This document shows, piece by piece, positions 1 through 53,461 of a stretch of DNA of 64,000 bases. Location of the stretch: assembly GCA_035549295.1 (NCBI GenBank), contig DASZRG010000043.1:1910-65909 (forward strand), read 5' to 3'. The first letter of the stretch is position 1, and each line of letters starts with the position of its first letter. The DNA comes from Patescibacteria group bacterium (GTDB taxonomy: Bacteria; Patescibacteriota; Microgenomatia; Levybacterales; GWA1-39-11). Made by a program: the position numbers and the translations under genes. A model generated the notes under the pieces. The model was given only the letters and a program-made list of their open reading frames with translations. It made no database searches and was not told where the DNA came from.

Positions 1-340
1 CTCGAGCACCATCGGCGAGTGCCTTGACTCTACCGTGGTAGCGATATGACCCTTTATCAAAGACTATTTCTTTCACTTTTTTGTCGATTGCAGCTTTTGC
101 GATCAACTTACCAACCTCAGCAGCTCTTTGGGTTTTGTTGAGCTTTTTATCCTCAATTGCTGCCTCACTTGCTGAAGCTAAAGTCGAACCTTTTTTATCG
201 TCAATTACCTGAGCATAAATATATTTATTTGATCTGAATACAGAAAGCCTAGGCAATACGCCATTTGCCAAAATTTTTCGGCGAATACGATTTTGACGTC
301 GTGATTTTCTAATTTTTTTAACTTTTTCTTCTTTTTGCAT
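1..340 (-). CDS. rplR: 50S ribosomal protein L18 (N-terminal part; gene runs off the window start)
   Basis: The reverse-strand translation starts with ATG at 338-340 and reads [48 protein letters not shown], which is typical of L18. It lies immediately upstream of L6, in the canonical spc order. Confidence 0.8.
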
Positions 341-341
341 A

Positions 342-890
342 TTATTTACCTGCAACTGCTTTTGCAGCTTTTCCAACTTTTCTTCTCAATTTTTCACCCA
401 TGTATTTTATTCCTTTTCCTTTGTAAGGATCTGGTGGGCGAACTTTTCTTATATCCGATGCGACGTCTCCAACAAGCTGCTTGTTGGCACCCGCAACAGT
501 AATAACATTTTCTGCGACTGTTATTGTAACACCTGTGACAGGAGACACCTTAACAGGAAGCGAATAACCCACATTTAAAACTAGATCTGTACCATCGACT
601 CTTGCGCGATAACCGACTCCTGTTAACTCAAGCTTTTTCTCAAAACCTTGATTAACTCCTGTCATCATGTTGGCAACAAGTGCGCGAACAAGACCTGCAT
701 ACTTTTCAACTTCTTGTGTCGCAAGAGTCTTTTTAATCCTAACACTATTATCTTCAACAACAAGCTCAATACCATCAGGCATCTTTTCTTCAAGACTACC
801 CTTTGGCCCCGTCACAACTATTTTTCCGTTTTGAACGGTTACTGTTGATCCGGTTTGAATTTGTACTAATTTTTTTGCTATGTTTGACAT
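342..890 (-). CDS. rplF: 50S ribosomal protein L6
   Basis: The 182 aa ORF has the L6 duplicated-domain sequence ([14 protein letters not shown] ... [10 protein letters not shown]). Its position between L18 and S8 matches the spc operon. Confidence 0.95.
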
Positions 891-966
891 ACTTTATATA
901 TTAAATATTAGATATTGCATATTATATTTTTTGAAATTTTATAATCTACAGTATATTATCTATTTC

Positions 967-1392
967 TTAAAAAATTTGAGCTATGAGCTCTCCCCCAACA
1001 CCAGTCTTTGTCGCTTCACGACTTGTCATAATTCCCTTGCTCGTTGATACAATTCCCATACCATGTCTTGAGACAGCAGTTTTTAGCTTCGTACGACCAA
1101 CGTAGTGATGCACTGATGGTTTTGAAACAATTTTTACGTCGACTATTGCAGGCATCCTATTTGTGTATTTAAGATCAATTTCCAAAAATTTCTTCTCAGT
1201 TGTAACTTTTGATCCAGCTCTCTTAGCCTTATCAAATTTTTCAGTTTTTGTTTTTATTTTTCCAACAAAACCTTCTTTTTCAAGAATTGCAGCAATAGAT
1301 GCAACCACGTTTGAATGTGGATAAACCAATTGCTTTTTTCGGGCTTGATACCCGTTTTTAACTTGTATTAAGAAATCTCCGATTGTATACAT
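967..1392 (-). CDS. rpsH: 30S ribosomal protein S8
   Basis: The 141 aa ORF starts MYTIGDFLIQVKNGY and ends ...GGELIAQIF, matching S8. Operon position agrees. Confidence 0.95.
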   Translation of the reverse strand: MYTIGDFLIQVKNGYQARKKQLVYPHSNVVASIAAILEKEGFVGKIKTKTEKFDKAKRAGSKVTTEKKFLEIDLKYTNRMPAIVDVKIVSKPSVHHYVGRTKLKTAVSRHGMGIVSTSKGIMTSREATKTGVGGELIAQIF

Positions 1393-1463
1393 ATTTTTTG
1401 CTTTTGGCGTTTGGCTCTTGGCGATTAGTTTCTAATTGCCAACTCCCAACCCCTAACTCCCAA
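1393..1463. repeat. Intergenic hairpin repeat, type A (a TTGGCK-rich arm facing a CTAACCCCTAA-rich arm), at the S8/S14 junction
   Basis: The junction reads TTGGCGTTTGGCTCTTGGCGATTAG-TTTCTAA-TTGCCAACTCCCAACCCCTAACTCCCAA. The two arms can pair if G-U wobbles are allowed. Confidence 0.75.
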
Positions 1464-1649
1464 TTACCAGCTGGCTTTTTTAACCCCTGGCAATTCTCCG
1501 CGTAATGCTCGCTCACGAAAACATATTCGGCAAAGACCAAATAGTCTCATGTAACCACGTGATCTACCACATAATTTACATATATTTTTTTGCCTAGTAC
1601 TAAATTTAGGCTTTCTAGAATTTTTTACTATGTTTGATAATTTGGCCAT
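1464..1649 (-). CDS. rpsN: 30S ribosomal protein S14, zinc-binding type Z
   Basis: The 61 aa ORF carries the CKLCGR ... CRIC zinc-ribbon motifs of S14 type Z. Its start is adjacent to or overlaps the L5 stop. Confidence 0.9.
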
Positions 1650-2200
1650 TAGTTCTTTGCCTCCTTTTTAAAAGGCATGCCCATTGCGCCAAGCAAAGCG
1701 CGCCCTTTTACATCATCTCCTGCAGATGTAACTATTGTTACCTGAAGACTGCGAACCTTATCAACTTTACCCGGGTCTATCTCTGCAAATACAGTTGTTT
1801 CAGTAAACCCAAGAGTTAAATTTCCTCGACCATCAAAAGCCGATGCATCAATCCCTGTAAAGTCACGAACCGCAGGAAAAATGATTTTAACAAGTTTTTC
1901 CATAAAATCATACATGCGCTTACCTCGAAGAGTAACATACATGCCTATTTCGTCTCCTTCTCGAAGCTTAAAAGTAGCAACAGATACCCTTGCTTTTGCA
2001 ATTTTTGGTGCTTGACCCGTAATAAGAGATAAATCTTCTTTCATTCTCTCAATATTCTTTTTATCAGATAGGAAATCTTTCATGGATGTATTAACCATAA
2101 TTTTCTTAATCCTTGGTATTGCCATAGGATTTTTAATAGATAATTCATCCATTAACTTCTTGACTGTTTCTGATTCAAATTGTTTTTTATAATCACTCAT
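1649..2200 (-). CDS. rplE: 50S ribosomal protein L5
   Basis: The 183 aa ORF shows L5 family sequence and lies between L24 and S14 in operon order. Confidence 0.95.
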
Positions 2201-2290
2201 AATTTTAGATATTAGTAATTAGATATTAGTTACTAGGTAATTTCCTAGTTACTAGTATCTAGTAACTATTTCCTAGCCCTGTCTCTGTTT
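2201..2290. repeat. Intergenic hairpin repeat, type B (TAGATATTAG units facing CTAGTAACTAG units), at the L5/L24 junction
   Basis: TTAGATATTAGTAATTAGATATTAGTTACTAGGTAATTTCCTAGTTACTAGTATCTAGTAACTATTTCCTAG. Confidence 0.75.
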
Positions 2291-2390
2291 GTGTTTTGGA
2301 TTTTCGCAAATTATATACAATCGTCCTCTTCTTTTAACGATTTTACATTTGTTACATCTTTTTTTTACTGACGCTTGCACCTTCATATTT

Positions 2391-2699
2391 TTAATCAATT
2401 GGCTTCAAACATTTTCTACAAATGCGAACCTTTGCTCCTTTTTCAATCTTCAAACCAATTCTTGTTGCTTTGTGACATTTTGGACAAACAATCGCAACTT
2501 TTGACGATACCATAGGCTTGGTTATCGTTATAATCTCTGACTTTTCGTTCTGAGAACGGGCTTTAACATGTCTTTTATATTCATTGATTCCCGGTACCAA
2601 AACTGTATTTTTGTCAGGATTGACAACTTCAACCTTTCCGGTTTTACCGTTGTCTCGTCCCATTAAAACTTTTATTGTATCTCCCTTTTTTATTTTCAT
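2391..2699 (-). CDS. rplX: 50S ribosomal protein L24, with the C-terminal hairpin converted to a C4 zinc ribbon
   Basis: An N-terminal KOW-like segment ([23 protein letters not shown]) is followed by CPKCHK ... CRKC in the C-terminal region. The gene lies between L14 and L5. Confidence 0.9.
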
Positions 2700-2766
2700 A
2701 TATTTTAGCTTTTAGCTCTTGGCGGTTAGTAAAAACTAATTGCTAACCCCTAAGCGCCAACCCCTT
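2700..2766. repeat. Type A hairpin repeat at the L24/L14 junction
   Basis: AGCTCTTGGCGGTTAGTAAAAACTAATTGCTAACCCCTAAGCGCCAACCCC. Confidence 0.75.
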
Positions 2767-3141
2767 TTACACTACGTGATTTGCAAGTGATGCAATTTTC
2801 GCGTAACCCAAATCTTTTATCTCTCGAGCGATAGGTCCAAAAATTCTAGTCCCCATCGGATTTTTTGATTTTTCATTTTCTACTATAACTCCAGCATTTT
2901 CAGAAAATCTGATATATGTTCCATCGTCACGTCTGTACTCTTTTCTTGTTCTAACGAGAACAACTTTTACTTTGTCTCCTTTTTTAAATTGAGTGTTTGG
3001 AAGTGCTTTCTTAACAACACATCCGAGATATGATCCAAGTTCTCCTTTTCTTCTCTTTGAACCACCATAGATATGTATAACTTGAAGGATTTTAGCCCCC
3101 GTGTTATCCGCAACTGTTAACATTGTTCTGTGCTGTACCAT
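2767..3141 (-). CDS. rplN: 50S ribosomal protein L14
   Basis: The N-terminus MVQHRTMLTVADNTGAK aligns with the L14 N-terminus MIQEQTMLNVADNSGAR. Confidence 0.95.
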   Translation of the reverse strand: MVQHRTMLTVADNTGAKILQVIHIYGGSKRRKGELGSYLGCVVKKALPNTQFKKGDKVKVVLVRTRKEYRRDDGTYIRFSENAGVIVENEKSKNPMGTRIFGPIAREIKDLGYAKIASLANHVV

Positions 3142-3215
3142 ATGTTTGCTTTTGGCGCTTGGCTTTTGGTGTTTGGTTTGCGTTTTAAAATTAACTAAAC
3201 GCTAACCCCTAAACC
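3142..3215. repeat. Type A hairpin repeat at the L14/S17 junction
   Basis: GCTTTTGGCGCTTGGCTTTTGGTGTTTGGTTTGCG ... ACTAAACGCTAACCCCTAAACCCTAAACGC. Confidence 0.75.
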
Positions 3216-3470
3216 CTAAACGCTTTTTGCTCCTTCCTTAATAATTCCTATAACCTTAAAATTTTTATCGCGACTCATTGGTCTTGTTTGTTCAATTTTT
3301 ACGTTTTGACCAACCATAAGCGCCATTCCAGCAGTATCTGCTTTTAAGTTAGTTGTTCGTCTCAACATTTTTTTGTAAATAGGATGCTTTACAAATCTTT
3401 CGATCTCAACGACAACCGTATTTTGCATTTTTGTCGATTTTACTCTTCCGATAAATGTTTTTTTAGCCAT
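3216..3470 (-). CDS. rpsQ: 30S ribosomal protein S17
   Basis: The 84 aa ORF has an OB-fold S17 sequence (GRVKSTKMQNTVVVEIER) and sits in the S17 operon position. Confidence 0.9.
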   Translation of the reverse strand: MAKKTFIGRVKSTKMQNTVVVEIERFVKHPIYKKMLRRTTNLKADTAGMALMVGQNVKIEQTRPMSRDKNFKVIGIIKEGAKSV

Positions 3471-3528
3471 ATTTATTAGAAATTAGATACTAGAAATTAG
3501 ATACTAGGAATTTCCTAGTTTCTAGTCT
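3471..3528. repeat. Type B hairpin repeat at the S17/L29 junction
   Basis: TTAGAAATTAGATACTAGAAATTAGATACTAGGAATTTCCTAGTTTCTAGTCTCTAGTGACTAG. Confidence 0.75.
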
Positions 3529-3789
3529 CTAGTGACTAGTCTCTCCTTTCGCGCGTGATTTATTTTTTACTTTTTCTTCTTCAAAAACTTGCCCCATTTC
3601 TTTCAAAGACATGAAAGTCAAAACTCTTGCTATGTCTTTATTCTTGGCGCGTCGCGCATTCATGTTTTTTGCTTTTCCAAGTTTTTCCTCAATCGATAGC
3701 TTTGAAAGCTCTTCTCTCATGTCAAGAAGCGTGCGCTTCAACTCGTCTAACGTTTTCATTTTTAAATCTGCAATATCTGTTTTTTTCAT
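3529..3789 (-). CDS. rpmC: 50S ribosomal protein L29, with a lysine-rich C-terminal extension
   Basis: At 86 aa it is longer than the usual ~65 aa. It sits in the L29 position between L16 and S17 and has an L29-like helical N-terminus. Confidence 0.8.
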   Translation of the reverse strand: MKKTDIADLKMKTLDELKRTLLDMREELSKLSIEEKLGKAKNMNARRAKNKDIARVLTFMSLKEMGQVFEEEKVKNKSRAKGETSH

Positions 3790-3792
3790 AAT

Positions 3793-4209
3793 TTATAAAT
3801 GACCCCTTTTAATAAAGCTGCTTTTGACAGGAAGCTTGTAAGCTGCAAGTCTCAATGCTTCTTTTGCTATTTCCTCTGTAATTCCACCCATTTCAAAAAG
3901 AACACGTCCACTCTTAACTGGCGCAACATATTCATGTATGTCGCCTTTTCCGCCACCCATTCTAGTCTCCGGGGGTTTTCTAGTGATAGGTCTGTCTGGA
4001 AAAATTCTTATCCAGATTCTTCCCCCACGCTTCGTAAAATGAGTGATAGACTTTCGAGCAGCCTCTATTTGTCGGCTGGAAATATTTCCTGACGCGTCGG
4101 CTCGAAGCCCAAACTCACCAAACGAAACCTTGTTGCCGGCAAATGCTATTTGGCCAGCGACCTTTGGTTTAAATTGTTTTCTATATTTTGATCTTCTTGG
4201 CGTTAACAT
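3793..4209 (-). CDS. rplP: 50S ribosomal protein L16
   Basis: The 138 aa ORF shows the L16 signature [12 protein letters not shown] ... GGGKG. Confidence 0.95.
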
Positions 4210-4276
4210 AAATTTAGCTTTTAGCGTTTAGCGTTTAGGTGTTAGTTACTAATTGCTAACCCCTAACTGCCAACTG
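4210..4276. repeat. Type A hairpin repeat at the L16/S3 junction
   Basis: TTAGCGTTTAGCGTTTAGGTGTTAGTTACTAATTGCTAACCCCTAACTGCCAACTGC. Confidence 0.75.
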
Positions 4277-4915
4277 CTACTTATTTATCCAGACTTTTAC
4301 TCCTATATATCCACTTTTTGTTAGGGCTGGATTTGATGCATAATCAATATCCTCACGAATTGTTGAAAGCGACACTTTGCCTGCCTGCAGTCTCTCGCGT
4401 CTTCCAATCTCAGCTCCTCCAATTCTTCCCGACAAAACAACTCTCACTCCCTTTGCACCTGCGCTCATAACCTTGTCAATTGTCTGCTTCATGACGCGTC
4501 TTGCAGGCATACGTCGAATAAGTTGATCCGAAATATTTGTAGCAACCAGATATGCCGAAAGATTTGGATCTTTAATAGGCTCTACTTTTAATTCAATCTT
4601 CTTTGAATTTCTCTCTTGCTTTGTTACTCCAAGCATTTTTACAATCTCACGCTTGAGATCTTCAAGACCTGAACCGCCACGACCTATTACAATTCCAGGA
4701 CGGGTAACATAAATTGTAAGCTTTATGCTTGATAGAGATCGCTCAATAATAACGTCTCCTACACCAGCCGGCTTTAGCTTTGCAAATAAAGCTTCACGAA
4801 TTTTGATATCCGAAAGAACGGTCTTTGAATATTGTTTTTTTGAATAATATCCTACGCTCTTAAAACCCTGGTGTATACCAAGACGAAGTGCTACTGGATT
4901 TACTTTTTGTCCCAT
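4277..4915 (-). CDS. rpsC: 30S ribosomal protein S3
   Basis: The 212 aa ORF starts MGQKVNPVALRLGI and carries the KH domain typical of S3. Confidence 0.95.
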   Translation of the reverse strand: MGQKVNPVALRLGIHQGFKSVGYYSKKQYSKTVLSDIKIREALFAKLKPAGVGDVIIERSLSSIKLTIYVTRPGIVIGRGGSGLEDLKREIVKMLGVTKQERNSKKIELKVEPIKDPNLSAYLVATNISDQLIRRMPARRVMKQTIDKVMSAGAKGVRVVLSGRIGGAEIGRRERLQAGKVSLSTIREDIDYASNPALTKSGYIGVKVWINK

Positions 4916-4989
4916 GATTTTTGGCTTATGGCAATTGGCTTTTGGCGGTTAGTATAAAAAACTAACTGCTAACCCCTAAACGCTAAGTG
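4916..4989. repeat. Type A hairpin repeat at the S3/L22 junction
   Basis: TTTTGGCTTATGGCAATTGGCTTTTGGCGGTTAGTATAAAAAACTAACTGCTAACCCCTAAACGCTAAG. Confidence 0.75.
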
Positions 4990-5442
4990 CTATTCGCTTT
5001 TCTCCTTTCTTACTCTTTTTGCTGCGGCTTTAATACCTGCAGTCAAACCTTTTGGCTTTGCTTCTTCGGCTGTTTCAACGGGCGCAACCGCGCGCATTGT
5101 GTCGCGAGTCTTACCATCTGCCAATATAACTCGTATGTGACTTGTTCTTCTTTTGTAGGGTCTGGTTCTTCCGCGACCAGCAAAATGAAAACGCTTCATT
5201 CCCACTCCACCGTCAACGATTATGTCTTTTATGGTCAGTTCATCTTTTTTAGCCTGAAAATTGTTGGTTGCATTAGCAACGGCTGAATCAAGTGCTTTTT
5301 TAATAGGGCCTGCAGCTCGCTTATTCATAACAGAAAGAGATGATAAAGCAACCATGAGCTTCTTCTCCTTTACGCCATCAGCAACCAAACGAACTTTTCG
5401 TGGCGATATTTTTATATTTTTTGCAATTGCTATATATTCCAT
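4990..5442 (-). CDS. rplV: 50S ribosomal protein L22, with a C-terminal Ala/Lys-rich extension
   Basis: The 150 aa ORF has an L22 core (ISPRKVRLVADGV) followed by an extra roughly 35 aa tail. Confidence 0.9.
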   Translation of the reverse strand: MEYIAIAKNIKISPRKVRLVADGVKEKKLMVALSSLSVMNKRAAGPIKKALDSAVANATNNFQAKKDELTIKDIIVDGGVGMKRFHFAGRGRTRPYKRRTSHIRVILADGKTRDTMRAVAPVETAEEAKPKGLTAGIKAAAKRVRKEKSE

Positions 5443-5518
5443 AATTCTAGATATTAGTGACTAGATATTAGATATTAGGAATTTGTTCTACTAGTTCCTA
5501 GTATCTAGTTTCTAATTA
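5443..5518. repeat. Type B hairpin repeat at the L22/S19 junction
   Basis: TCTAGATATTAGTGACTAGATATTAGATATTAGGAATTTGTTCTACTAGTTCCTAGTATCTAGTTTCTAATTACT. Confidence 0.75.
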
Positions 5519-5803
5519 CTATGTTTTACTGACCTCCCTCGCAACAACTCTCCCGTGACCTCTAAATAGTCTTGTCGGCGCGAATTCACCAAGTCTATGA
5601 CCAACCATATTTTCAACTACTTTTACAGTAATGTGATTTTTTCCATTGTGTACCAAGAAAGTAAGACCAACAAATTCTGGCGGAATTTGGCTTGCACGTG
5701 CCCAAGTCTTGATAGGTGCAACTTGCCCACTCGCGCGCTGTGCCTGAACTTTCTTCATAAGCTTCTCATCAATGTATGGTCCTTTTCTAAGTGATCTACT
5801 CAT
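5519..5803 (-). CDS. rpsS: 30S ribosomal protein S19
   Basis: The 94 aa ORF starts [12 protein letters not shown] and contains [11 protein letters not shown], matching S19. Confidence 0.95.
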
Positions 5804-5887
5804 ATTTTAAAATTAAATTGTTTAATTGCTAAAAATTGTTAAATTGTTTTAAACAATATAGCTATTCAACAATTTAGCAAATATATT

Positions 5888-6628
5888 TTACTTTCTTCTC
5901 TTAACTATATTCTTGTTTGAATATTTCTTTGGTCTTCTTGTCTTACCAACTGCCTTGCGTCCTCGGTAGGTCTTTGGTGAAGTCATACCGATTCCAGAAC
6001 GTCCTTCTCCTCCACCGTGAGGGTGAGAAGATGGATTCATCGCAACTCCGCGAACTGCTGGCCTTATACCTCGGTGTCTTGATGCTCCTGCCTTACCAAG
6101 TACTCGATCTTTCCAATCTACATTTCCGAGTTGTCCGATTGTAGCAAAATTTTTAACTAAAATCTTCCTTATTTCGCCTGAAGGCATTCTAACATATGCA
6201 TATTCACCCTCGCGAGATACTATAAAAGCTTGATTTCCTGCTGAGCGAGCAAGCTGTCCACCCCGTCCCGGGTTCAATTCGATATTGTGAATTGGCTGTC
6301 CGACCGGAATATTTGCAATCGGCATAGCGTTTCCAGGACGAATATCAACATCTACACCTGATGCAACCTTATCCCCAACCTTAAGTCCTACTGGAGCTAA
6401 TATATATCTTTTGTCTCCGTTCTTATAGTTTACCAGAGCCAGGTCAGCTGAGCGATTTGGATCATACTCTATAGCTGCAACAACACCCTCGATTCCAACA
6501 TTATTGCGCTTAAAATCAACGCTTCTGTAAAATCTTTTGTGTCGTCCACCCTGATGGCGAACAGCAACACGACCTTGCGAATCGCGCCCTGACTGTTTTT
6601 TAAGAATTGTTAGTAATTTCTTTGACAT
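5888..6628 (-). CDS. rplB: 50S ribosomal protein L2, with a shortened N-terminus
   Basis: The 246 aa ORF contains the conserved L2 motifs EYDPNRSA, GQLARSAG and HPHGGGEG. Confidence 0.95.
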   Translation of the reverse strand: MSKKLLTILKKQSGRDSQGRVAVRHQGGRHKRFYRSVDFKRNNVGIEGVVAAIEYDPNRSADLALVNYKNGDKRYILAPVGLKVGDKVASGVDVDIRPGNAMPIANIPVGQPIHNIELNPGRGGQLARSAGNQAFIVSREGEYAYVRMPSGEIRKILVKNFATIGQLGNVDWKDRVLGKAGASRHRGIRPAVRGVAMNPSSHPHGGGEGRSGIGMTSPKTYRGRKAVGKTRRPKKYSNKNIVKRRK

Positions 6629-6631
6629 GGT

Positions 6632-6976
6632 TTATTTCTTCGTTTCTTTCTCTTTTTTCTTATCTTCTTTCTTTTCTTCCCCGGTACTCTCTTCAAAAAT
6701 TGCTATTTTTTGTCCATTTGCCAGCTTTACGCGTGCTTTTTTATAATCAGCAGGAAGAATTCTGCGACCTGTTCTTGTATTTCTTGTTTTTGTTCCTTTA
6801 ATATTTGCTGTGTAAACATTTCTAACATCAACGCTAAAAAGCATCTCAACGGCATTTTTGATATCAGTTTTAGTAGCTGCTTTATCCACTAAAAATGTAT
6901 ATTTACCCGCTTTTGCCTCAGTAAATGACTTTTCAGAAATAATTGGTTTTACTAAAAAGCTTGCAAAATTTTTCAT
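6632..6976 (-). CDS. rplW: 50S ribosomal protein L23
   Basis: The 114 aa ORF has L23-like sequence and sits between L4 and L2. It has a Glu/Lys-rich tail. Confidence 0.9.
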   Translation of the reverse strand: MKNFASFLVKPIISEKSFTEAKAGKYTFLVDKAATKTDIKNAVEMLFSVDVRNVYTANIKGTKTRNTRTGRRILPADYKKARVKLANGQKIAIFEESTGEEKKEDKKKEKETKK

Positions 6977-6977
6977 A

Positions 6978-7745
6978 TTATTTTCCTAAAAATACCTTCT
7001 CAAGCGTTGGGATTGAATCCTTGGTAATAACCAAGTAGCTACTATTCAAAACTTCATAAGTGTTGATGCTGTGAGTTGGTAATACGCTCGCGCCATCAAT
7101 ATTTCTAACTGATCTAACAACACTCTTTGCGTCTGCAACAAAAAGGAATTTGTTTGTTTTATTCTTCTTTGTTACAACTTCAAGTGTTTTAAGCAATTTA
7201 TTCATTTCGGATGTTTTTCCTGATGCGCCGGTTACATCAATTGCAATAATTCGACCAGCAGCTAACTTTTGTGAAAGAGCTGAAAAAATTGCTTTTTTCT
7301 TCATTTGTTTTGATAATTTAAGCTCAAAATTGCGAGGTTTTGGACCATGTGCAATTCCTCCTCCAACAAAAATAGGTGCTTTTATCGCTCCGTGACGTGC
7401 ACGACCTGTACCTTTTTGTCTATAAATTTTTCTAGTTGAACCGATAACTTCTCCGCGAGTCTTGGTAGACGCTGTACCTTGTCTTTGGTTAACCAAATAA
7501 ACACGAATCGCCTGAGTCATAAGATCTTCATTGATCTTTGCTCCAAATATCTCTGCTGGAAGACTAATTGTTCCGCTTTTTGCACCATCTATACTAAAAA
7601 CAGGGAGTGAGAGACTTGTGCTCTTTGCAGTAACTGTCTTTTCGGCTTTAGGTGCAGCAGCACGTGAAACAGCAACAACTTTTGCCTTTTGTGTTGTTGA
7701 ACTTTTGATATTTGATTTTTGATTTTTGATCTTACTTTCCGGCAT
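6978..7745 (-). CDS. rplD: 50S ribosomal protein L4. Start placed at the internal ATG 7743-7745; the tracked ORF extends to 7835 but would overlap rplC
   Basis: The L4 core is present (QRQGTASTKTRGEV ... GPKPRNF). An AAGGAGGAGG ribosome-binding site lies just upstream of the ATG at 7745, and the L3 stop is at 7732. Confidence 0.88.
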   Translation of the reverse strand: MPESKIKNQKSNIKSSTTQKAKVVAVSRAAAPKAEKTVTAKSTSLSLPVFSIDGAKSGTISLPAEIFGAKINEDLMTQAIRVYLVNQRQGTASTKTRGEVIGSTRKIYRQKGTGRARHGAIKAPIFVGGGIAHGPKPRNFELKLSKQMKKKAIFSALSQKLAAGRIIAIDVTGASGKTSEMNKLLKTLEVVTKKNKTNKFLFVADAKSVVRSVRNIDGASVLPTHSINTYEVLNSSYLVITKDSIPTLEKVFLGK

Positions 7746-8676
7746 TTTCCTCCTCCTTTGACTCGACGGAACCTTCAGTGGAGTCGGTCTTTGTCTCGCC
7801 AGAGCTTTCAGCGTCGGCGGACTTTTCAGCTTCATTTACCACTTCAGTTGCAGTTGCTGGTGTCGCATCAGTTGGCGCCTCGACAACATCTGCTGCAGGT
7901 GCTGTCTCAACGACTTCTGCCGTTTCTTCAGTCTTTACTTCTTCTTTTCCAAGATCTGCGACTTCTGCAATCTGGGATAAATCCTCCTGAACTGTCTCTA
8001 TCTTTTCTTCTTCTTTTTTCTCAGCCCAAAGAGGAGTGAAGTTTTTGTTCTTTCGACCAACCTTATTTAAAACAACTATGCTTCCACGAGTTCCTGGGAT
8101 CAAACCTTTAACCAAAATTAAATCATCTTTGATCTCAAGAACCTCAAGGTTTTTGACAGTTACTTGCTCATTACCCATGCGACCGGCCATTTTTTTACCT
8201 TTGTAAACACGGCCTGGAGTTGTACCTGATCCGCTTGATCCGCGAGCACGCTCACGATCTGACTGTCCATGAGTTCTTGGTCCACCAGCAAATCTGTATC
8301 TCTTAACAACACCTGCAAACCCTTTTCCTTTTGAAGTTCCAGTTACGTCTACGTAGTCGCCAGCCTCAAAAACCTCATCAATTACAACTGGCGATCCGGC
8401 TGTCGCGCCTGCGACATCATCTACCCTTATTTCGCGAAAAAAGCGGGGTGTTGTTGATAATCCCGCTTTTTTTATGTGGCCGCTCGTTGGTTTGTCAGGG
8501 CGCATATTTTCTCCGAATGAGAGTTGAATGGATGAATAACCCTCTTTTTCAGGAGTTTTGACCTGAGAAACGACGTTTCCACCCACGGCGATAATCGAAA
8601 GCGGAACGCGGGTTCCATCTTCCAAAAAGCCTTGCGTTTGAGCAATTTTTTGACCAATAAGACCTGTAATGTTCAT
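7732..8676 (-). CDS. rplC: 50S ribosomal protein L3, with a roughly 110 aa acidic Glu/Thr/Ala-rich C-terminal tail. An alternative start lies at 8721
   Basis: The N-terminus MNITGLIGQKIAQTQGF matches L3. The tail runs in frame to the stop at 7732. Confidence 0.9.
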   Translation of the reverse strand: MNITGLIGQKIAQTQGFLEDGTRVPLSIIAVGGNVVSQVKTPEKEGYSSIQLSFGENMRPDKPTSGHIKKAGLSTTPRFFREIRVDDVAGATAGSPVVIDEVFEAGDYVDVTGTSKGKGFAGVVKRYRFAGGPRTHGQSDRERARGSSGSGTTPGRVYKGKKMAGRMGNEQVTVKNLEVLEIKDDLILVKGLIPGTRGSIVVLNKVGRKNKNFTPLWAEKKEEEKIETVQEDLSQIAEVADLGKEEVKTEETAEVVETAPAADVVEAPTDATPATATEVVNEAEKSADAESSGETKTDSTEGSVESKEEENAGK

Positions 8677-8791
8677 GTTTTTTAAGGCAACAAAAAAGCG
8701 ACATCGAGTCGCTCCATTCACGTCCCAGGGATTGAACTCGTAGCATCATGTAACTAAAGAACCTATCAATAGTTTGGACATGTAAGATAGA

Positions 8792-8820
8792 ATTATATAC
8801 TGTTTCGGCCTTAATTGCAA
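8792..8820 (-). promoter_or_regulatory. Putative sigma70-type promoter for the rplC operon (TTGCAA, 17 nt spacer, TATAAT read on the minus strand)
   Basis: On the plus strand, the reverse complement of TATAAT lies at 8792-8797 and the reverse complement of TTGCAA at 8815-8820. It lies upstream of rplC in the gap opened by the CDF/NUDIX insertion. Confidence 0.4.
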
Positions 8821-8867
8821 CACGCACGAAATACGCTCCAAAAAATCATATCTGATATACTAAAATC

Positions 8868-9797
8868 GTGGAAAAACGAGAGGTAAAAAATACACCTCCA
8901 TCATCAAAAAAAGTAATTTTGGCATCTTTTTTGGTCGATCTTTCTGATGTTCTGCTGAGCCTTTTCGCTGCGACCACCTCCGGAAGCATCATCATGTTTA
9001 TCGAGCTAATTGAGGCTATTGCTGACCTTTCAGCATCCGGACTACTTGTAATTGGTGCCAACCGAGCAAAACTACCCGCAAATAAAGCCTTCCCATTTGG
9101 TCACGGCCGTGAAGTCTACTTCTGGAGCTTCATTTCGGCGATTTTGATAATAGGGATCGCATCAACATTTTCGATATATTTTGGCTGGCAAAGACTCACA
9201 AACCCGCATGAAATTAAAAATATTCAGTTAACTTTTCTTATACTTCTTATAACAACCTGCACCAATGGGTATGCGTTCTACATAAGCCTAAAGCGTCTTC
9301 GTGGCAAAATACACTCAAGAAGCATTTTAAATTCATTCCTGAGATCGTCACTGGTCGAAATTAAAACCACTTTTGTACTCGATCTAATGGGAACTGTTGC
9401 ATCAATTCTGGGATTTTTCGCATTACTAATATATGTTGCAACAGGCGACTTACGATTTGATGGAATTGGAGGAATTACGGTTGGATTCACACTTGCTACG
9501 CTCGGAATACTTCTGATTCTTGGAATACGAGACCTCTTAGTTGGTAAAAGCGCATCAAATGAGACTTTGGAACTTCTCAAGAAAATTGCCCTCACAATAC
9601 CTGAAGTAAATGATGTTTTGGAAGTAAAAACAATGCACATTGGGTCAGAAAGGCTTCTTGTAAACATGAATGTTACGATGAAAAATAACCTCACGACACA
9701 AGAAGTCGCAAAAACTATAGATGAAATCGAAAGAAGAATAAGAATAGAGATGCCAGCCGTAAAACATATTCAGGTCGAACTTGACCTTCCAGAATAG
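8868..9797 (+). CDS. Cation diffusion facilitator (CDF) family metal efflux transporter; GTG start
   Basis: The 309 aa ORF has six predicted TM helices (HGREVYFWSFISAILIIGIA) plus a C-terminal cytoplasmic CDF domain. It is encoded opposite to the flanking ribosomal genes. Confidence 0.8.
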   Translation: MEKREVKNTPPSSKKVILASFLVDLSDVLLSLFAATTSGSIIMFIELIEAIADLSASGLLVIGANRAKLPANKAFPFGHGREVYFWSFISAILIIGIASTFSIYFGWQRLTNPHEIKNIQLTFLILLITTCTNGYAFYISLKRLRGKIHSRSILNSFLRSSLVEIKTTFVLDLMGTVASILGFFALLIYVATGDLRFDGIGGITVGFTLATLGILLILGIRDLLVGKSASNETLELLKKIALTIPEVNDVLEVKTMHIGSERLLVNMNVTMKNNLTTQEVAKTIDEIERRIRIEMPAVKHIQVELDLPE

Positions 9798-9808
9798 TAA
9801 TTTATAAT
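9781..9808 (+). promoter_or_regulatory. Putative promoter TTGACC (9781-9786), 16 nt spacer, TATAAT (9803-9808), placed 8 nt before the NUDIX ATG, consistent with a leaderless mRNA
   Basis: The hexamers are read directly. There is no Shine-Dalgarno sequence between the -10 element and the ATG at 9817. Confidence 0.45.
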
Positions 9809-9816
9809 CACAATAT

Positions 9817-10239
9817 ATGAATCAGCGAGTCGTCATGGGCGGATTTATTGTCCGAGATAAAAAATTTTTGATTGTAAAACGATCCAAAAATGATAGTTTT
9901 CTTCCAGGATTTTGGGAAATACCAGGCGGCAAACTCGAGCATGGAGAATCTCCAGAATCTGGTTTGTATCGGGAGCTCCTGGAAGAAACAGGATTGAAAG
10001 TAAAGCCTATTAGCGCACTTTCTTCGTGGACTTATGGAAATGTAGACAAAACACAGTTCATTCAAATAGACTATTTATGCGAAATAGAGCAAGATGCACA
10101 AGTTATTTTAAGCGAAGAACACGAAGAATATAGATGGGTTGATTTTGAAGAGGCTAAAAAAATGGATATAACAAGTCCTATGAAAACTGAAATTTTGAAA
10201 TTTGAACAAAATCCGCTAGTGAGAACTTACTTCTCCTAG
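9817..10239 (+). CDS. NUDIX hydrolase (MutT-like)
   Basis: The Nudix box GGKLEHGESPESGLYRELLEETGL (G-x5-E-x7-REUxEExGU) is present in a 140 aa ORF. Confidence 0.85.
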   Translation: MNQRVVMGGFIVRDKKFLIVKRSKNDSFLPGFWEIPGGKLEHGESPESGLYRELLEETGLKVKPISALSSWTYGNVDKTQFIQIDYLCEIEQDAQVILSEEHEEYRWVDFEEAKKMDITSPMKTEILKFEQNPLVRTYFS

Positions 10240-10570: not shown

Positions 10571-10605
10571 TAAAAAAACCTACCGCTTTCAGCGCAGTAG
10601 GTTTA
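10571..10605 (-). terminator. Intrinsic terminator after tuf
   Basis: On the minus strand, a CCTACTGCGC / GCGGTAGG stem-loop is followed by a 7-U run. It sits between the tuf stop (10678) and the rpsJ start. Confidence 0.55.
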
Positions 10606-11859: not shown

Positions 11860-12156
11860 TTTTGTAAAAAATAAACCCTTCGTTTAACTCAGGGTGAAAT
11901 ACATGATACAAAACTTTTTAAAAATCGTCAAGAGGTAAATTGCATGCAAATACTCTACAAATATAAATCGTGCGAATATCTACAAATAATAACGGTTTGG
12001 TAATAAGTCTGCGCTACACGAATAAACCCGAATGTAAACGAATGAAATCCGAATAATTTAGTCATCAAGACTAAAGGAGTTAATGATTAGTCTGATGTCT
12101 TAATGATTGATCACTAATTCTTTTAATCCTAATCACTAAAAGGGATTGCTTAATAC

Positions 12157-14625
12157 TTACTTACTGATGGCGCCGAGTTCGACAATTGTTAATCCGTCTC
12201 GTTTTATTTTTTGCAAAACGGGATAATTTTTAACTTCTTTATTTGATGATGAAACTTTTAATATCATTCTAAAAGTATTCTGTGGTGCTGGATCAACCAA
12301 AATTGGAAGCTTATTGCTCATCTCATCTTGCGAAACAAGCGATATTGACAGGAATTTTTCTTTTGGCAAATTGCTGATTACACCTTGCGTGTCAGATATG
12401 AGTGCGTTTGTTTCAGAATTATTTAGGCCAAGAGGTTTTGAAAATTTATCTATGATTTCATCCCTCCAATTGCCAGCATCAATAGTAAACTCTCCTTCAC
12501 TATTCAAATGGATTTTCTTCGGATCAAATTCATAATATATATTTGAATAATTAATATCATTACTAAACTTCAGATTACTATTGCTGCTAACAGTAAAATT
12601 CCATAGTGGATTATTTGAGCTGTAAGACGGCGATGTATATGTAGTTTGGAAATCAGTCGTTAGACTTAGTTGCATTGGTTTTTGAGAGTAGACAAAAATG
12701 TGAGGAGATACTCCTGTAATATAACAATTTCCTACTGAGCCTTGAGATAAGAACAGATTCTGAATAGTATCAACCGTTGATGACGGAAATAGATCGGGTT
12801 TCTTTACCCAATCCGAATACTGATAGTGCTCCATCGCGTCATTTAGAATTGATTTTGTATCGCTAAGTACTTGTGACACGTATTTTGTTTCGAACGAAGC
12901 ACCCCCATCAAGACCTCCATATTGTTTCATGCAACTACTCGTCATAGGTGCTGGCATCGCATAAGTTGAACAGTTTTTATTCATCGTATCAAATAGCTGG
13001 TCAAGATCTGTACCATAGGTTAAGCTGGGATTCGCGCGAGCAACATTAATTGCATATTGCTGTGCAACAACTTTAAAAAATGCATCTCGAACCGCATCGA
13101 TGTTTATATCACTTGGATTATCAGAATAAACATAATAAGAATGTGTAGTTCCTGACGGTGCAACTACTAGTTGTCCATATCCTTCTACATCAAACTCAAT
13201 AAGATTATTTATGTCTCCACCATTCTCATCTATACATGCGTCAGCAGGCGGAGTACTAGAATACTGAGGGGCTGGTGAATTTGTTTGTTGGGCAATGCTT
13301 GGTTGAGACGTTGGGGTTACTTGGGTAATAGAGGGACTAAATGATCGCATCTGAATCGTTTGCTGACCGAGAACTTGCTCACCACTTGCAGTATTTGATG
13401 CTAAATCATTTTCATTTGAAACCATACTTAGATCTGATCTCAAGGCAGGAACTACCTGGGCAAATTTAACATTATAGCCTGAATCCAACTCGACACTACC
13501 TCTTACGAGGTAATATGGAACGTATGTATCCTGTGCCACATCAGTAGGTTTATCAAGATAGATAAGACCCACATCATAAATCACGGCATTGTTATATGTA
13601 GCTTTTGCTTGATCATCTGGATAAACTTTGCTCAGGTCAGTTGCTCCCGATCCGTCAGGGACCGTAAAGCTATAAAGTGCTTTATGGCTCTTTAACGAAG
13701 CTAGAGCTTCATCGGTTGAAATAATCTCATCGGCAGACGCACTACTTTTTATTTGCTCAGAGTTTAATATCCAACGAATATTTGAATCGATTGACAACAG
13801 TGACCCATCTGAAGTTACTGCAATTGTTATAGTGTTAAATGAATTTGGTCGAGCAAGCCCATCAAGACCGGAACTTTCAGATATTATATTTTTGTCTTGC
13901 GGTGAATCAGCATTTTCAACAACGCCCGGCAGAATTTGCGAGATAGGTTTGTTAACAGGCAGATTCAATGCCCCTCCCAAGTTTACAACAGGCAAGCCAA
14001 GGCTTGTTCTATGACACTCTACAAAAGTAACAGATGAGGGATAGCCTGTTTTTTTATAGGTATGCTGACAAGAAAGGAATGAATCTGCTAACCCTATACT
14101 CTTTATTACACTCTGTGCCATGTCAATCGGAGTCGAAGAGGAAATATTATCTGAGTTAATTGTGCTTATTTTAAAGTCTCCATACGAACGATAGTTAAAT
14201 TCTCCCGACGATTTGTTAAATTGCATTATTCCACGCTTCTCGGGATCTACTAAATTGTCAAACACCACGTTTGGGTCACCCGCTGTTTCTTTAAGCTGGT
14301 CAAGACCGAATTTATTTCCAAAGGCAAACGCTTCGGCGGTCGTAAAATTGGATTTGAGAATATATTTTGAAACAGATACAGGAGCAACTGAACTACTAGG
14401 CTGTTTTTCAGTGTAATAATTAAAATACACTTTTTGGCTCGGTGTTTCTGCCGTTTTTGAGGTTTTATTTCCCTTAGCTGGTTCGTTTTGTGCGACTTTT
14501 GGTTTGTTTAGTAGTAAAAATATTGCTAGCACCAAAGTAATGAATATAGCAATTCCGCAAGCTATAAAAATCCAGTTCTTTTTGAAGTTAAAATTTTGAA
14601 ATAAATTCCTGATCTTTTGGATCAT
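12157..14625 (-). CDS. Large hypothetical extracytoplasmic protein (822 aa) with an N-terminal membrane anchor
   Basis: An N-terminal TM helix (NWIFIACGIAIFITLVLAIFLLL) is followed by Ser/Thr/Asn-rich, low-complexity domains. I do not recognise any family. Confidence 0.6.
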   Translation of the reverse strand: MIQKIRNLFQNFNFKKNWIFIACGIAIFITLVLAIFLLLNKPKVAQNEPAKGNKTSKTAETPSQKVYFNYYTEKQPSSSVAPVSVSKYILKSNFTTAEAFAFGNKFGLDQLKETAGDPNVVFDNLVDPEKRGIMQFNKSSGEFNYRSYGDFKISTINSDNISSSTPIDMAQSVIKSIGLADSFLSCQHTYKKTGYPSSVTFVECHRTSLGLPVVNLGGALNLPVNKPISQILPGVVENADSPQDKNIISESSGLDGLARPNSFNTITIAVTSDGSLLSIDSNIRWILNSEQIKSSASADEIISTDEALASLKSHKALYSFTVPDGSGATDLSKVYPDDQAKATYNNAVIYDVGLIYLDKPTDVAQDTYVPYYLVRGSVELDSGYNVKFAQVVPALRSDLSMVSNENDLASNTASGEQVLGQQTIQMRSFSPSITQVTPTSQPSIAQQTNSPAPQYSSTPPADACIDENGGDINNLIEFDVEGYGQLVVAPSGTTHSYYVYSDNPSDINIDAVRDAFFKVVAQQYAINVARANPSLTYGTDLDQLFDTMNKNCSTYAMPAPMTSSCMKQYGGLDGGASFETKYVSQVLSDTKSILNDAMEHYQYSDWVKKPDLFPSSTVDTIQNLFLSQGSVGNCYITGVSPHIFVYSQKPMQLSLTTDFQTTYTSPSYSSNNPLWNFTVSSNSNLKFSNDINYSNIYYEFDPKKIHLNSEGEFTIDAGNWRDEIIDKFSKPLGLNNSETNALISDTQGVISNLPKEKFLSISLVSQDEMSNKLPILVDPAPQNTFRMILKVSSSNKEVKNYPVLQKIKRDGLTIVELGAISK

Positions 14626-15333: not shown

Positions 15334-15374
15334 AACTGTATTTTATCACTAATGTATCCGAATGGTTAGTCCGA

Positions 15375-15809
15375 ATGAACCGAATGCACTATACTTTAAT
15401 TATGCCCAATATCGTTTATCCGGAACTTTCATATAAGTTAATGGGTATTCTATTTCAAATACATACAGAATTAGGTAATAGATATCAAGAAAAATATTAT
15501 CAACGAGCAATTGAATTATCTCTTAAGAAAAATGGAATTATATATAAAAAGGAACTACCAGTAGATTTAATCTTTGAGGGAGAGAAAATTGGTAAATATT
15601 ATCTCGATTTTTTGGTTGAGAATAAAATTATTTTAGAAGTAAAAGCAGTCGAGAGAATCTTACCTAAAGATTTTACTCAATTACTTGCATATTTAAAGGC
15701 AAACAACCTAGAGCTAGGAATTCTAGTAAACTTCAGGACTAATAAATTATTTTCTCGAAGAATTTTAAACTCGGATTTTCAAAGAGACAATTCGGGTCAT
15801 TTGGAGTAA
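15375..15809 (+). CDS. GxxExxY family protein
   Basis: The sequence YLDFLVENKIILEVKAVERILPKDFTQLLAYLKANNLELGILVNF matches the GxxExxY (TIGR04256-like) family. The start may instead be the second ATG at 15384. Confidence 0.65.
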   Translation: MNRMHYTLIMPNIVYPELSYKLMGILFQIHTELGNRYQEKYYQRAIELSLKKNGIIYKKELPVDLIFEGEKIGKYYLDFLVENKIILEVKAVERILPKDFTQLLAYLKANNLELGILVNFRTNKLFSRRILNSDFQRDNSGHLE

Positions 15810-15834
15810 AAATTCGGATTTATTCGTGATACCG

Positions 15835-24381: not shown

Positions 24382-24387
24382 TTGCAA

Positions 24388-24498
24388 GGGTATCACGGGT
24401 ACCATGGGTATCACGAGTATCACAAGCTATTCATTTTTCAGCAATAACTGTCCACTATAGCACGTGATACTCTTGATACTTGTGATACACTTGATACC
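24388..24498. repeat. Inverted pair of four-unit 9-mer arrays (GTATCACGG-like units) separated by a 33 nt spacer
   Basis: Left arm GGGTATCACGGGTACCATGGGTATCACGAGTATCACAAGC. Right arm GCACGTGATACTCTTGATACTTGTGATACACTTGATACC, which is the reverse complement at about 75% identity. It starts 7 nt after the LytR_C gene stop. Confidence 0.85.
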
Positions 24499-24510
24499 TC
24501 TCATATAACC

Positions 24511-27489: not shown

Positions 27490-27849
27490 TTAAGATTTAT
27501 TTGCTATTGCTGCAAAGATTTTAACAAATTCACTCGCCTCCTGCATTAGAGGTTCCAATTCACGTCTGAAGTCTAAATTTGCGTCTATGAGCAGGTCAAA
27601 CCAATAAACAGTTTCCTTCGACTCTTTTCTACAGATTCTTATCCTAAAAAAGAAATCCTTTTTTGTTTCTGTTTCATTTGCTTCTCGATAATTTGCACCG
27701 ATTGAGGTCGCTGATCTTACAAGTTGATCTATTAGTTTAAAATTAACGGTATTCTTGGGTAAAGAGCTTAAAACTTTAATCGTTTTCTTGCTGAACTCTA
27801 AAGTTCTATCTTCTAAGTCATACTTTTTAATGTTTGATGCTTGAGACAT
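27490..27849 (-). CDS. Four-helix-bundle protein (23S rRNA intervening-sequence protein / bAvd-like family)
   Basis: The sequence LIDQLVRSATSIGANYREANETETKKDFFFRIRICRKESKETVYWFDL matches the TIGR02436-type four-helix-bundle family. Confidence 0.75.
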   Translation of the reverse strand: MSQASNIKKYDLEDRTLEFSKKTIKVLSSLPKNTVNFKLIDQLVRSATSIGANYREANETETKKDFFFRIRICRKESKETVYWFDLLIDANLDFRRELEPLMQEASEFVKIFAAIANKS

Positions 27850-27881
27850 TATTTGGAACTTGGAATTTGGAATTTGATGCT

Positions 27882-29675: not shown

Positions 29676-29747
29676 TTTTTTTCCTTGTCATTCTTAAGGA
29701 GCAACGCGACTGAAGAATCTTTGTTAAAGATCCTTCGAGCTTCGCTC

Positions 29748-30935: not shown

Positions 30936-30992
30936 ACTAGTATCAAGTATAAGGTATTAGGTATAAAGTATAAAGAGGCAGCGGCAATAAGA

Positions 30993-31766: not shown

Positions 31767-31912
31767 GAGGATATTATATCAGTAAGGAGAGTTGGGGGAG
31801 TAAGGTAAGTTAGGGGTTAGTAATGACGTTGGGATACGGAAGAGATTCTGAAACAAGTTCAGAATGACGACGTTGGATGGTCAATTGTCAGTTGTTAATT
31901 GTCAATTGTAAA

Positions 31913-35302: not shown

Positions 35303-35429
35303 TCGAGATACTAGATATTAGAAACAAGTAACTACTTAAGGATTAAGTTAAAAAAAGTTTAAAGTTATTATTCAAATATATTGATCCAAATCACATACAA
35401 CTCGCATAATTCATGATTAAATTCGCATT

Positions 35430-38266: not shown

Positions 38267-38276
38267 CTTAGATAGT

Positions 38277-53388: not shown

Positions 53389-53461
53389 ATTTGATTACTA
53401 TCAGACTACGAGTAACTAGATACTAGAGAATAGTAACTAGAAGTCTCCAGTTATTAGTTAG

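Follow-up and report, generated by a model that had tools for sequence, protein, structure and literature searches.

The stretch of DNA analysed here (64,000 nt of contig DASZRG010000043.1, hereafter the window) comes from a member of the Patescibacteria with a Levybacteria-like genome, has a G+C content of ~38%, and uses the standard genetic code. Its best relatives are Patescibacteria metagenome-assembled genomes (MAGs), several of which are labelled Levybacteria, and with the source record itself excluded the closest of them reach at most 85–87% identity in the S3 protein. Positions 1–8721 of the minus strand carry a ribosomal protein operon with the gene order L3-L4-L23-L2-S19-L22-S3-L16-L29-S17-L14-L24-L36-L5-S14-S8-L6-L18 (gene identities via Pfam), and rpoB-rpoC-rpsL-rpsG are found at 39004–47315, with an unsplit rpoC encoding 1276 aa. 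The junctions between several of these genes are filled by short repeats, here called type B, which are the subject of this analysis. The four main copies (B1 to B4) all lie between co-transcribed minus-strand ribosomal protein genes and have a uniform polarity, with a CTAG-rich arm 5′ and a CTAA-rich arm beside the start codon. Together with the weaker candidates, they are as follows:

2201–2276, minus strand: B1, full type B element at the L36/L5 junction (hairpin fold, profile match, sequence)
3471–3546, minus strand: B2, full type B element at the L29/S17 junction (fold, profile match, alignment)
5443–5521, minus strand: B3, full type B element at the S19/L22 junction (fold, profile match, alignment)
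39484–39520, minus strand: B4, half type B element (3′ arm alone) filling the rpsL/rpsG spacer with five direct CTAR-WWW heptamers
53404–53464, no strand assigned: weak type B-like copy immediately preceding the start of a 757-aa gene and adjoining a separate 118-nt repeat
35303–35345, plus strand: marginal type B-like fragment of 2–3 units, directly after the stop of an M24 peptidase gene
891–966, minus strand: heptad-periodic A/T-rich array (ATATTNN) in the S8/L6 spacer, period-7 self-identity (p7) 0.61

On the mRNA strand, type B elements follow the plan (CTAG-NNN)n, GGAAATTCC-like loop, (CTAR-WWW)n, A/T, ATG, and their arms are tandem 7-nt units composed of CTAG, CTAA, or TTAG plus three mostly A/T bases. 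A preliminary description of this DNA had located type B repeats at several junctions of the window; they are present there, far beyond chance, and most of the coordinates given were right, but some boundaries, one junction, and several copies had to be corrected. The unit was also redefined: it is a heptamer, tandem in both arms, and the motif TAGATATTAG given earlier amounts to ~1.4 units. Tandem Repeats Finder (TRF) detects period 7 at 2245–2268, 3475–3544, 5448–5478, and 39488–39519, and the period-7 self-identity is 0.61–0.67 in type B spacers and 0.57–0.70 with those of the similarly built type A included, compared to ~0.25–0.3 in ordinary spacers. The motif YTAG-N3-YTAG-N3-YTAG has 33 matches in the window vs. 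0.04 expected from shuffles, and TAGATATTAG, with at most one mismatch, has 25 matches vs. 5.2 expected.

B1 consists, on the mRNA strand, of a 5′ arm of four to five CTAG-NNN units, the loop GGAAATTACC, a 3′ arm of five CTAR-WWW units, and AAATT, followed by the L5 ATG at 2200, and the base of its stem contains the L36 stop codon (2273–2275). Its arms are 5 nt out of phase (hand count), and ~6/7 positions pair, not just those of the core. The junction had been described as L5/L24 and is in fact L36/L5, since a 37-aa L36 gene (rpmJ, 2273–2386, PF00444) intervenes. This gene is found between L24 and L5 rather than near infA/rpsM, and the L24-L5 gap of Levybacteria-like relatives holds the same small L36 open reading frame (ORF). 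B2 was confirmed at its proposed position (3471–3528) but reaches ~3546, its stem covering the final codons and the stop (3529–3531) of L29, while on the other side AATAAAT leads to the S17 ATG at 3470. B3 spans from the S19 stop (5519–5521) to 4 nt short of the L22 ATG at 5442.

The three full copies share pairwise identities of 79–83% over 72–82 nt, and the long hairpin attributed to type B was recovered in all of them. These hairpins are imperfect, with ~18–27 predicted pairs depending on the strand, free energies (dG) of −16 to −29 kcal/mol, and fold z-scores of −3.8 to −7.6 vs. shuffles. For the mRNA and antisense strands, respectively, dG is −21.5 and −29.0 kcal/mol in B1, −28.9 and −29.1 kcal/mol in B2, and −16.0 and −24.1 kcal/mol in B3. 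The rpsG/rpsL copy, B4, is type B in sequence, but it is a 3′ arm only (model positions 38–73 are matched), ends in AAATTT before the rpsG ATG, and forms no mRNA-strand hairpin (dG −0.5). Of the three further places for which degenerate copies had been suggested, 53404–53464 matches the type B profile weakly but significantly (E 2.5e-5 on the plus strand and 0.0039 on the minus strand), 35303–35345 is marginal (E 0.045, no hairpin, z about +1), and 891–966 was removed from the family, having neither a match to the type B profile nor a significant hairpin (z about 0).

To place these elements in a wider context, the window was compared with 60 ribosomal protein operon loci of other genomes of the Candidate Phyla Radiation (CPR), yielding an intergenic set of 621 spacers of 30–200 nt and a coding control of 4108 chunks of 70 nt, for which periods 4–12 were tested; a scan of metagenomes with L29 retrieved zero relatives. 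Period 7 was the best period in 224 of the 621 spacers, and a strict heptad test selected 117 of them, compared to 6 of the 4108 coding chunks. Almost all of these heptad spacers (110/117) lie between co-directional ORF calls, and the remaining 7 are mostly inside ribosomal protein operons beside probably spurious opposite-strand ORF calls. A complementary arm and a fold are present in 79 of the 110 elements. The units differ between genomes (TTAGG/CTAA, TTGAC/GTCAA, TGATTA/TAATCA, GCTACAC, GCCTAGA, and others), and CTAR-WWW arrays like those of type B are present in 11 sampled CPR genomes (20 matches vs. 0–1 in shuffles), where they usually end 0–10 nt before ATG. Type B is thus one sequence family of a wider class, which we name heptad palindromes: inserts of 60–100 nt with inverted heptamer-array arms and a short loop. 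A literature search returned no description of heptad palindromes in Patescibacteria.

In filled junctions, which have a median spacer of 81 nt, the stems start a median of 3 nt past the stop and end a median of 8 nt ahead of the start, and in near-identical paralogues aligned with 30-nt flanks the similarity extends from at or just inside the upstream stop to a few bases before the ATG. The outermost heptad unit often provides the upstream stop codon, and 3′ arms, like the solo copy at 39484–39520, end 3–7 nt ahead of the ATG. The intercistronic placement proposed at the outset is borne out, with the four main copies alike in polarity and the elements essentially absent from coding sequence; a random orientation combined with copies inside genes, which would have spoken against it, was not observed. 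The interleaving of types A and B along one operon also held, and the two types, both of which carry the YTAG-N3 heptad, are variants of one kind. The statement that the elements are not random insertions needs to be divided: they are insertions, but non-random ones, which occur only at stop-start junctions and are overrepresented in the operons for ribosomal proteins and RNA polymerase. In the window, 9/15 spacers of these operons are heptad spacers vs. 3/29 elsewhere (Fisher p=9e-4).

The filled junctions also differ from tight ones in their translation signals. A Shine-Dalgarno-like site within 22 nt of the start is missing from all 71 filled junctions and present in 24% of 285 tight junctions, and 37% of the filled and 29% of the tight junctions carry a Shine-Dalgarno-like motif towards the end of the upstream gene. 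Bridging of this motif to the start by the hairpin was considered and set aside, as the closed stem still leaves it an estimated ~25–30 nt from the AUG. A makes up 42% and G 6% of the 8 nt that precede the start. Among the periodic cores, TAA, CTA, TAG, and TTA are the most frequent, stop triplets recur every 7 nt, and the first 35 nt contain a stop in each of the three frames in 55% of the elements vs. 16% of shuffles.

A known RNA family was rejected on the basis of Rfam 15, which gave 0 matches at gathering thresholds for the whole window and, even at a permissive E<=1 for positions 1–9000, one unrelated chance match; no tRNA or tmRNA was found near the elements. It is also highly improbable that the elements are terminators or attenuators within the operon, or an assembly artefact. 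They are intergenic hairpins, and two short inner B2 stems were picked up in a loose terminator scan, but the stems are A/T-rich, lack a downstream U-tract on both strands, and are followed by AAATT-ATG or similar. This sets them apart from the canonical G+C-rich terminator with a T-run found after tuf (10576–10604) and led us to reject a Rho-independent terminator, while an artefact is difficult to reconcile with the same architecture in dozens of independent MAGs from different studies.

The preliminary description had regarded the elements as RNA structures with a shared role between cistrons. In its more specific form, this explanation views them as mRNA-selected intercistronic stem-loops that would act as an RNase barrier, as an RNase III processing site at which the long transcript is divided into stable pieces, or in coupling, by hiding the next start region as long as the upstream cistron is untranslated. 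B1–B3 do form strong stems on the mRNA (dG −16 to −29, z −3.8 to −6.9), and the elements span exactly from stop to start, are enriched in highly expressed operons, and have an orientation bias of 43:18. Moreover, the spacer positions of B1–B3 differ yet stay complementary at 2/25 pairs. The pairing statistics, however, argue against selection on the mRNA hairpin. They are based on the 79 palindromic elements of the 110, each aligned to its own reverse complement, with equal scores for both transition mismatches. On the mRNA strand we counted 1719 Watson-Crick pairs, 136 G.U, and 206 A.C, and the antisense fold is more stable in 49 elements and the sense fold in 23 (Wilcoxon p=8e-4). The ratio of A.C to G.U is 1.5, compared to 1.36 computed from the base composition of the elements; the trend is opposite to the G.U enrichment that was looked for as a sign of mRNA-hairpin selection and is accounted for by the A-rich composition of the sense strand. 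With the antisense fold at least as stable and the A.C:G.U ratio near that given by composition, pairing is not preferentially preserved on the transcribed strand.

RNAalifold on B1–B3 yields a covariation term of +0.56, which is no support, although three sequences are too few to decide, and 2/25 pairs are changed on both sides. Stem positions that are not Watson-Crick recur with the period of the unit (335 pairs at lag 7, 253 at lag 6, 212 at lag 8, and 205 at lag 14). This periodicity would be expected of arms that are homogenised as tandem arrays, rather than held base by base to a pairing partner. Stemless half elements fill equivalent junctions, namely that of B4 and, in the relative L062, S3/L16 and S17/L14, the same genome also having a B2-like 3′ arm. 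Combined with the absence of elements from several of the closest sampled relatives and their replacement between near-identical genomes (see below), these results did not uphold the view of conserved functional RNA structures, and we regard selection as mRNA stem-loops as an unlikely, if serious, alternative.

Comparison among relatives revealed a rapid turnover of the elements. In L001, L012, and L061, with an S3 identity of 74–87%, the junctions measure 1–20 nt throughout and are without elements, whereas most junctions are filled in the window, L004, L005, L006, L014, and L062, and the split between filled and empty operons is also found in distant CPR classes. Between L021 and L022, the flanking coding sequence is 91–97% identical, but the elements at L2/S19 and S17/L14, although of similar length, are unrelated, being only 53–58% identical and belonging to different families. 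Elements of one family, on the other hand, are 88–95% identical between genomes whose S3 genes are 75–86% identical. Within genomes, 16 copy pairs share an identity of at least 85% over stretches of 50 nt or more, non-repetitive loops included, and L004, L045, and L026 have near-identical copies with unique loops at different junctions of one genome. Paralogous copies differ by indels of exactly 7 nt. The contig of the closest relative, L061 (Logan contig SRR29230219_5637), ends 9 nt past the S3 stop, where an element would sit if present. This end may be an assembly break at a repeat; it fits, without showing, that short-read assemblies of ribosomal protein operons break at such repeats, which would affect the recovery of marker genes from MAGs.

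Slippage in 7-nt steps is also what would be expected of heptanucleotide microsatellites that arise in place during replication, in which case the palindromy would follow incidentally from a self-complementary core, and elements would not be copied from one site to another. Heptamers are the commonest long simple-sequence-repeat class in prokaryotes according to Mrazek (2007, as cited in PMC4679880), and CTAG is self-complementary (the YTAR class being its own reverse complement), so that a CTAG-N3 array pairs with itself at 4/7 positions. Yet the pairing in B1 goes beyond the core, and a single continuous array of a self-complementary unit was rejected for this element, as its arms are out of phase and its spacers also pair. 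Type A and many other families have units that are not self-complementary and nevertheless possess a complementary second arm, and the non-repetitive loops common to copies weigh against a purely in-place origin. A scan of viral contigs for perfect (CTARWWW) arrays of at least 5 units gave >120 matches, which would agree with slippage, but these are long, perfect, non-palindromic microsatellites and for that reason uninformative as a clue to a vector. Overall, we consider an exclusively in-place origin quite improbable.

We favour, with a probability of roughly 0.5, the explanation that type B is a DNA repeat similar to repetitive extragenic palindromic (REP) elements and miniature inverted-repeat transposable elements (MITEs), built of heptamer arrays resembling the short tandemly repeated repetitive (STRR) sequences, and tolerated because its fold-back keeps stop and start adjacent. 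With about even odds, then, the elements behave like fast-turnover selfish or neutral DNA repeats, unlike conserved regulatory RNAs. Whole elements, loops included, would be copied between stop-start junctions of co-transcribed genes by an inferred mechanism, and their arms would gain or lose exact 7-nt units by slippage and be homogenised within each arm. Gain, loss, and replacement of elements proceed far faster than change in the flanking genes, and some families appear to pass between genomes.

On the polycistronic mRNA, such an insert is predicted to form an imperfect stem-loop from the stop, or ~3 nt after it, to ~4–8 nt before the AUG. Its own stop triplets, recurring every 7 nt, would close all three frames, and the start-proximal arm would present an A-rich, G-poor, unstructured stretch without a Shine-Dalgarno site. 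A terminating ribosome might melt the base of the stem and land a few nt from the next start, allowing reinitiation, so that coupling would survive. An insert of this kind is thus probably tolerated in an essential, coupled operon because of its own stops, the A-rich stretch before the AUG, and the proximity of stop and start brought about by the fold-back. Phage T4 gene 38 and the MS2 coat-replicase junction provide examples in which a stem between the end of a reading frame and the next start joins them or couples their translation. By analogy with such coupling hairpins, fold-back probably preserves translational coupling here as well, but the likeness is one of mechanism only, as the phage hairpins are single, conserved, and gene-specific. 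For the elements described here, stop-start proximity is plausible, whereas bridging of the upstream Shine-Dalgarno-like motif is unlikely.

Several observations weigh against the interpretation as a mobile or neutral DNA repeat. No transposase, REP-associated tyrosine transposase (RAYT), or other mobilising gene was found among the proteins scanned in the 64-kb window, and no target-site duplication is visible in the near-identical copies with 30-nt flanks. Copies within one genome are not independent, so that the p-values are optimistic. The operon enrichment is not obviously expected of a purely selfish element and could reflect function, or else a junction-specific or transcription-linked mechanism. 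The orientation is biased: a G/T-rich arm lies 5′ and an A/C-rich arm beside the start in 43 elements, compared to 18 with the reverse arrangement, and a further 18 are ambiguous. Finally, a start-proximal array of the CTAATAT type recurs in distantly related CPR classes, with two Taylorbacteria loci having near-identical solo (CTAATAT)4 arrays before start codons and like arrays being present in Levybacteria-like genomes. The bias and this recurrence would fit some selection on the mRNA-proximal arm.

In another explanation, the elements are binding arrays for a protein whose subunits or domains each recognise ~7 nt and which, bound just ahead of the start codon, would control initiation at starts lacking a Shine-Dalgarno site, a role also proposed for the TAACTGA repeats of Beggiatoaceae, with the complementary arm serving as an anti-sequence. 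A cold-shock-domain protein, ribosomal protein S1, or a HutP-like ring could in principle be the reader, but we consider this doubtful. HutP recognises UAG every 7 nt (UAG-N4-UAG-N4-UAG), and the UAG-N4 spacing is present in both arms; no HutP gene was found among the scanned window proteins, and no terminator follows the elements. The start-proximal position of solo arrays and 3′ arms, mostly ending 0–10 nt before ATG, the lack of Shine-Dalgarno sites in filled junctions, and the near-identical (CTAATAT)4 arrays in Levybacteria-like and Taylorbacteria genomes would all be consistent with binding sites. In addition, the type B 3′-arm unit, read as TAACTAA, differs at a single base from the TAACTGA that Beggiatoaceae have at this position, also within their ribosomal protein operons (PMC4679880). 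In contrast, the units (TTGAC, GCTACAC, TGATTA, GCCTAGA, and others) are too diverse, within as well as between genomes, for a single sequence-specific reader, 18 of the 61 oriented elements are reversed, turnover is rapid, and the window has no gene for a candidate binding protein in the vicinity of the elements.

The closest precedents for the elements are the cyanobacterial STRR heptamers and the TAACTGA repeats of Beggiatoaceae. Like the arrays described here, STRR sequences consist of 7-nt units repeated in tandem in non-coding DNA, and a genome has several families of such units. An array and its complement can also be close neighbours: the hupS-asr0689 spacer of Nostoc PCC 7120 holds ttgtcag x3 together with ctgac-type arrays (PMC2408588), and the window likewise has a TTGTCAA/TTGTCAG array (31880–31914). 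STRR sequences differ in their hosts, which are cyanobacteria (heterocystous), whereas the CPR arrays are short (3–5 units) and mostly paired into palindromes that fill junctions within operons. TAACTGA repeats are known from marine Beggiatoaceae, some Cyanobacteria, and Bacteroidetes (MacGregor 2015, PMC4679880). They are direct repeats of 2–6 copies, located a few nt upstream of starts without a recognisable ribosome-binding site, carry stop triplets, occur within ribosomal protein operons, and are patchily distributed among relatives (PMC4679880). The type B 3′ arms and the solo copy at 39484–39520 fit this description of start-proximal, stop-bearing repeats without a ribosome-binding site. 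The units found here are instead TAACTAA, TATCTAA, TTACTAA, etc., and many unrelated heptamers are repeated in the same genome, whereas heptamers related to TAACTGA are rarely repeated. Furthermore, the BOGUAY genome has 169 direct TAACTGA sets and one indirect set, with no RNA structure predicted (PMC4679880), whereas most CPR elements (79/110) are palindromic and fold.

REP elements and MITEs are behavioural analogues. REP sequences, bacterial interspersed mosaic elements (BIMEs), and REP doublets forming hairpins (REPINs) of Proteobacteria are short, imperfect extragenic palindromes, mostly located between co-directional or convergent genes and co-transcribed with them, and are multi-copy and lineage-specific. 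The elements studied here are likewise short, imperfect extragenic palindromes with several similar copies within the 64-kb window, but REP sequences lack tandem heptads and are tied to RAYT (a Y1 transposase) and a conserved flanking tetranucleotide, and no RAYT was among the scanned window proteins. REPINs have been described as miniature mobile DNA (PMC3116915). With MITEs, the elements share their small size, non-coding nature, inverted-repeat arms, dispersed similar copies, and variable presence among relatives; they differ in lacking a target-site duplication and an autonomous element in the window, in their internally periodic arms, and in having edges at stop and start codons. New here are the occurrence in a CPR host, the compact palindromic build with its exact fit to stop-start junctions, and the many coexisting unit families, as well as the direct evidence that elements are replaced between near-identical genomes and homogenised arm by arm.

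Type A elements follow the same plan as type B, with units TTRG-GNN and CYAA-NNG. A G-quadruplex in their G-rich arm was considered and set aside, as the G-tracts are inconsistent between copies. Type A and other heptad families of the window include:

1393–1463, minus strand: type A element at the S14/S8 junction, heptads TTRGGNN in one arm and CYAANNG in the other
2700–2766, minus strand: type A element at the L14/L24 junction (periodicity, fold, profile)
3142–3215, minus strand: type A element at the S17/L14 junction (periodicity, fold, profile)
4210–4276, minus strand: type A element at the S3/L16 junction (periodicity, fold, profile)
4916–4989, minus strand: type A element at the L22/S3 junction (periodicity, fold, profile)
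47549–47616, no strand assigned: type A-like array of CTAAAAG/CTAACAG heptads, located in the spacer that precedes rpoB (E 3e-6)
7703–7730, minus strand: solo heptamer array of four ATCAAAA units (mRNA strand) at the L3/L4 junction, immediately following the L3 stop
27850–27881, minus strand: solo heptamer array, AATTCCA x3–4 on the mRNA strand, filling the spacer before a gene of the 23S-rRNA-IVP family (p7 0.72)
30936–30992, minus strand: solo heptamer array with TATACTT-like units (mRNA strand), which stops 3 nt short of the start of an ATP-citrate-lyase-like gene
48635–48696, minus strand: heptad palindrome of another family (TTTGAC / GTCAATT), p7 0.50

The last of these lies upstream of a 427-aa gene resembling glycosyl transferase family 3 and pyrimidine-nucleoside phosphorylase (48697–49980). 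Heptad arrays of unrelated units were found at 7703, 27850, 30936, 31880, 40003, 47586, 48635, 49997, 50132, and 60546, and the unit families of the window include CTAG/TTAG, TTGGC, TTGAC, AATTCCA, and ATCAAAA.

Repeats with other periods, or none, are present as well. The spacer between L2 and S19 contains a hairpin (5804–5887; dG about −14 to −15, z about −3) with AATTG-containing units at ~8-nt spacing, and the junction hairpins of this operon are thus not all heptad-periodic. At 24382–24510, between two plus-strand genes, repeats with a 9-nt period (GGGTATCAC / GTGATACNN) make up a long palindrome; this family recurs inverted at 60501–60539 with 90% identity over 39 nt and is also found at 38155–38170 and 53560–53573. 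A non-periodic 118-nt repeat is present at 38152–38268 and 53456–53573 in opposite orientations with 86% identity; both copies adjoin a gene end, and one of them directly borders the weak type B-like element. Repeats of the TTAATCACTAA / TTAGTGATTAA type form hairpins in the spacers 12059–12161 and 55487–55584 and are 72% identical over 105 nt in inverted orientation. Another periodic family consists of CCGAAT / ATTCGG motif arrays with ~10-nt spacing (11990–12060, 15334–15374, 15810–15834, and 63225–63365), which flank several genes, including a small gene of the PD-(D/E)XK_3 family (PF13366) at 15375–15809.

Other features of the window concern its gene content. The S10 operon is split, with genes for a cation-efflux transporter and a NUDIX hydrolase on the opposite strand (8868–10239) between S10 and L3, and the transporter is found in the same location in L061. 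Upstream of L3, within 8695–8800, a conserved stretch of ~60 nt ending in GAGTTCAATCCCTGGGAC resembles a tRNA T-arm plus acceptor, is followed by a terminator-like hairpin (8715–8695), and is kept in L002, L006, and L007. ARAGORN and Rfam give nothing for this stretch, which could represent a tRNA (degenerate or with an intron) or the leader of L3. The small gene at 27490–27849 belongs to the "23S rRNA intervening sequence protein" family (PF05635) and has a solo heptamer array directly before it. Two neighbouring genes at 27882–30935 encode ATP-citrate lyase domains (citrate-binding plus ATP-grasp, and CoA-ligase plus citrate synthase C-terminal), representing an unusual metabolism for a CPR genome.

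Although it is a rather improbable scenario, CPR bacteria might possess an active mechanism that specifically targets stop-start junctions in highly expressed operons, where it writes and rewrites heptad palindromes. In that case, the elements would be a device for coupling or initiation independent of Shine-Dalgarno sites, read by a protein or a ribosome with a 7-nt footprint, and the heptamers of cyanobacteria and Beggiatoaceae would be part of the same system. Intergenic heptanucleotide repeats of bacteria (STRR, TAACTGA) have been known for decades, with their origin and function unexplained, and the CPR data make this question more tractable. Heptad repeats are abundant in CPR, in a palindromic form that bridges stop and start within the most conserved operon of the genome. 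The ribosomal protein operon can be aligned in every genome and is thus a natural assay for rates of gain, loss, and slippage, and its comparison allows phylogenetic profiling for the enzyme or binding protein responsible.

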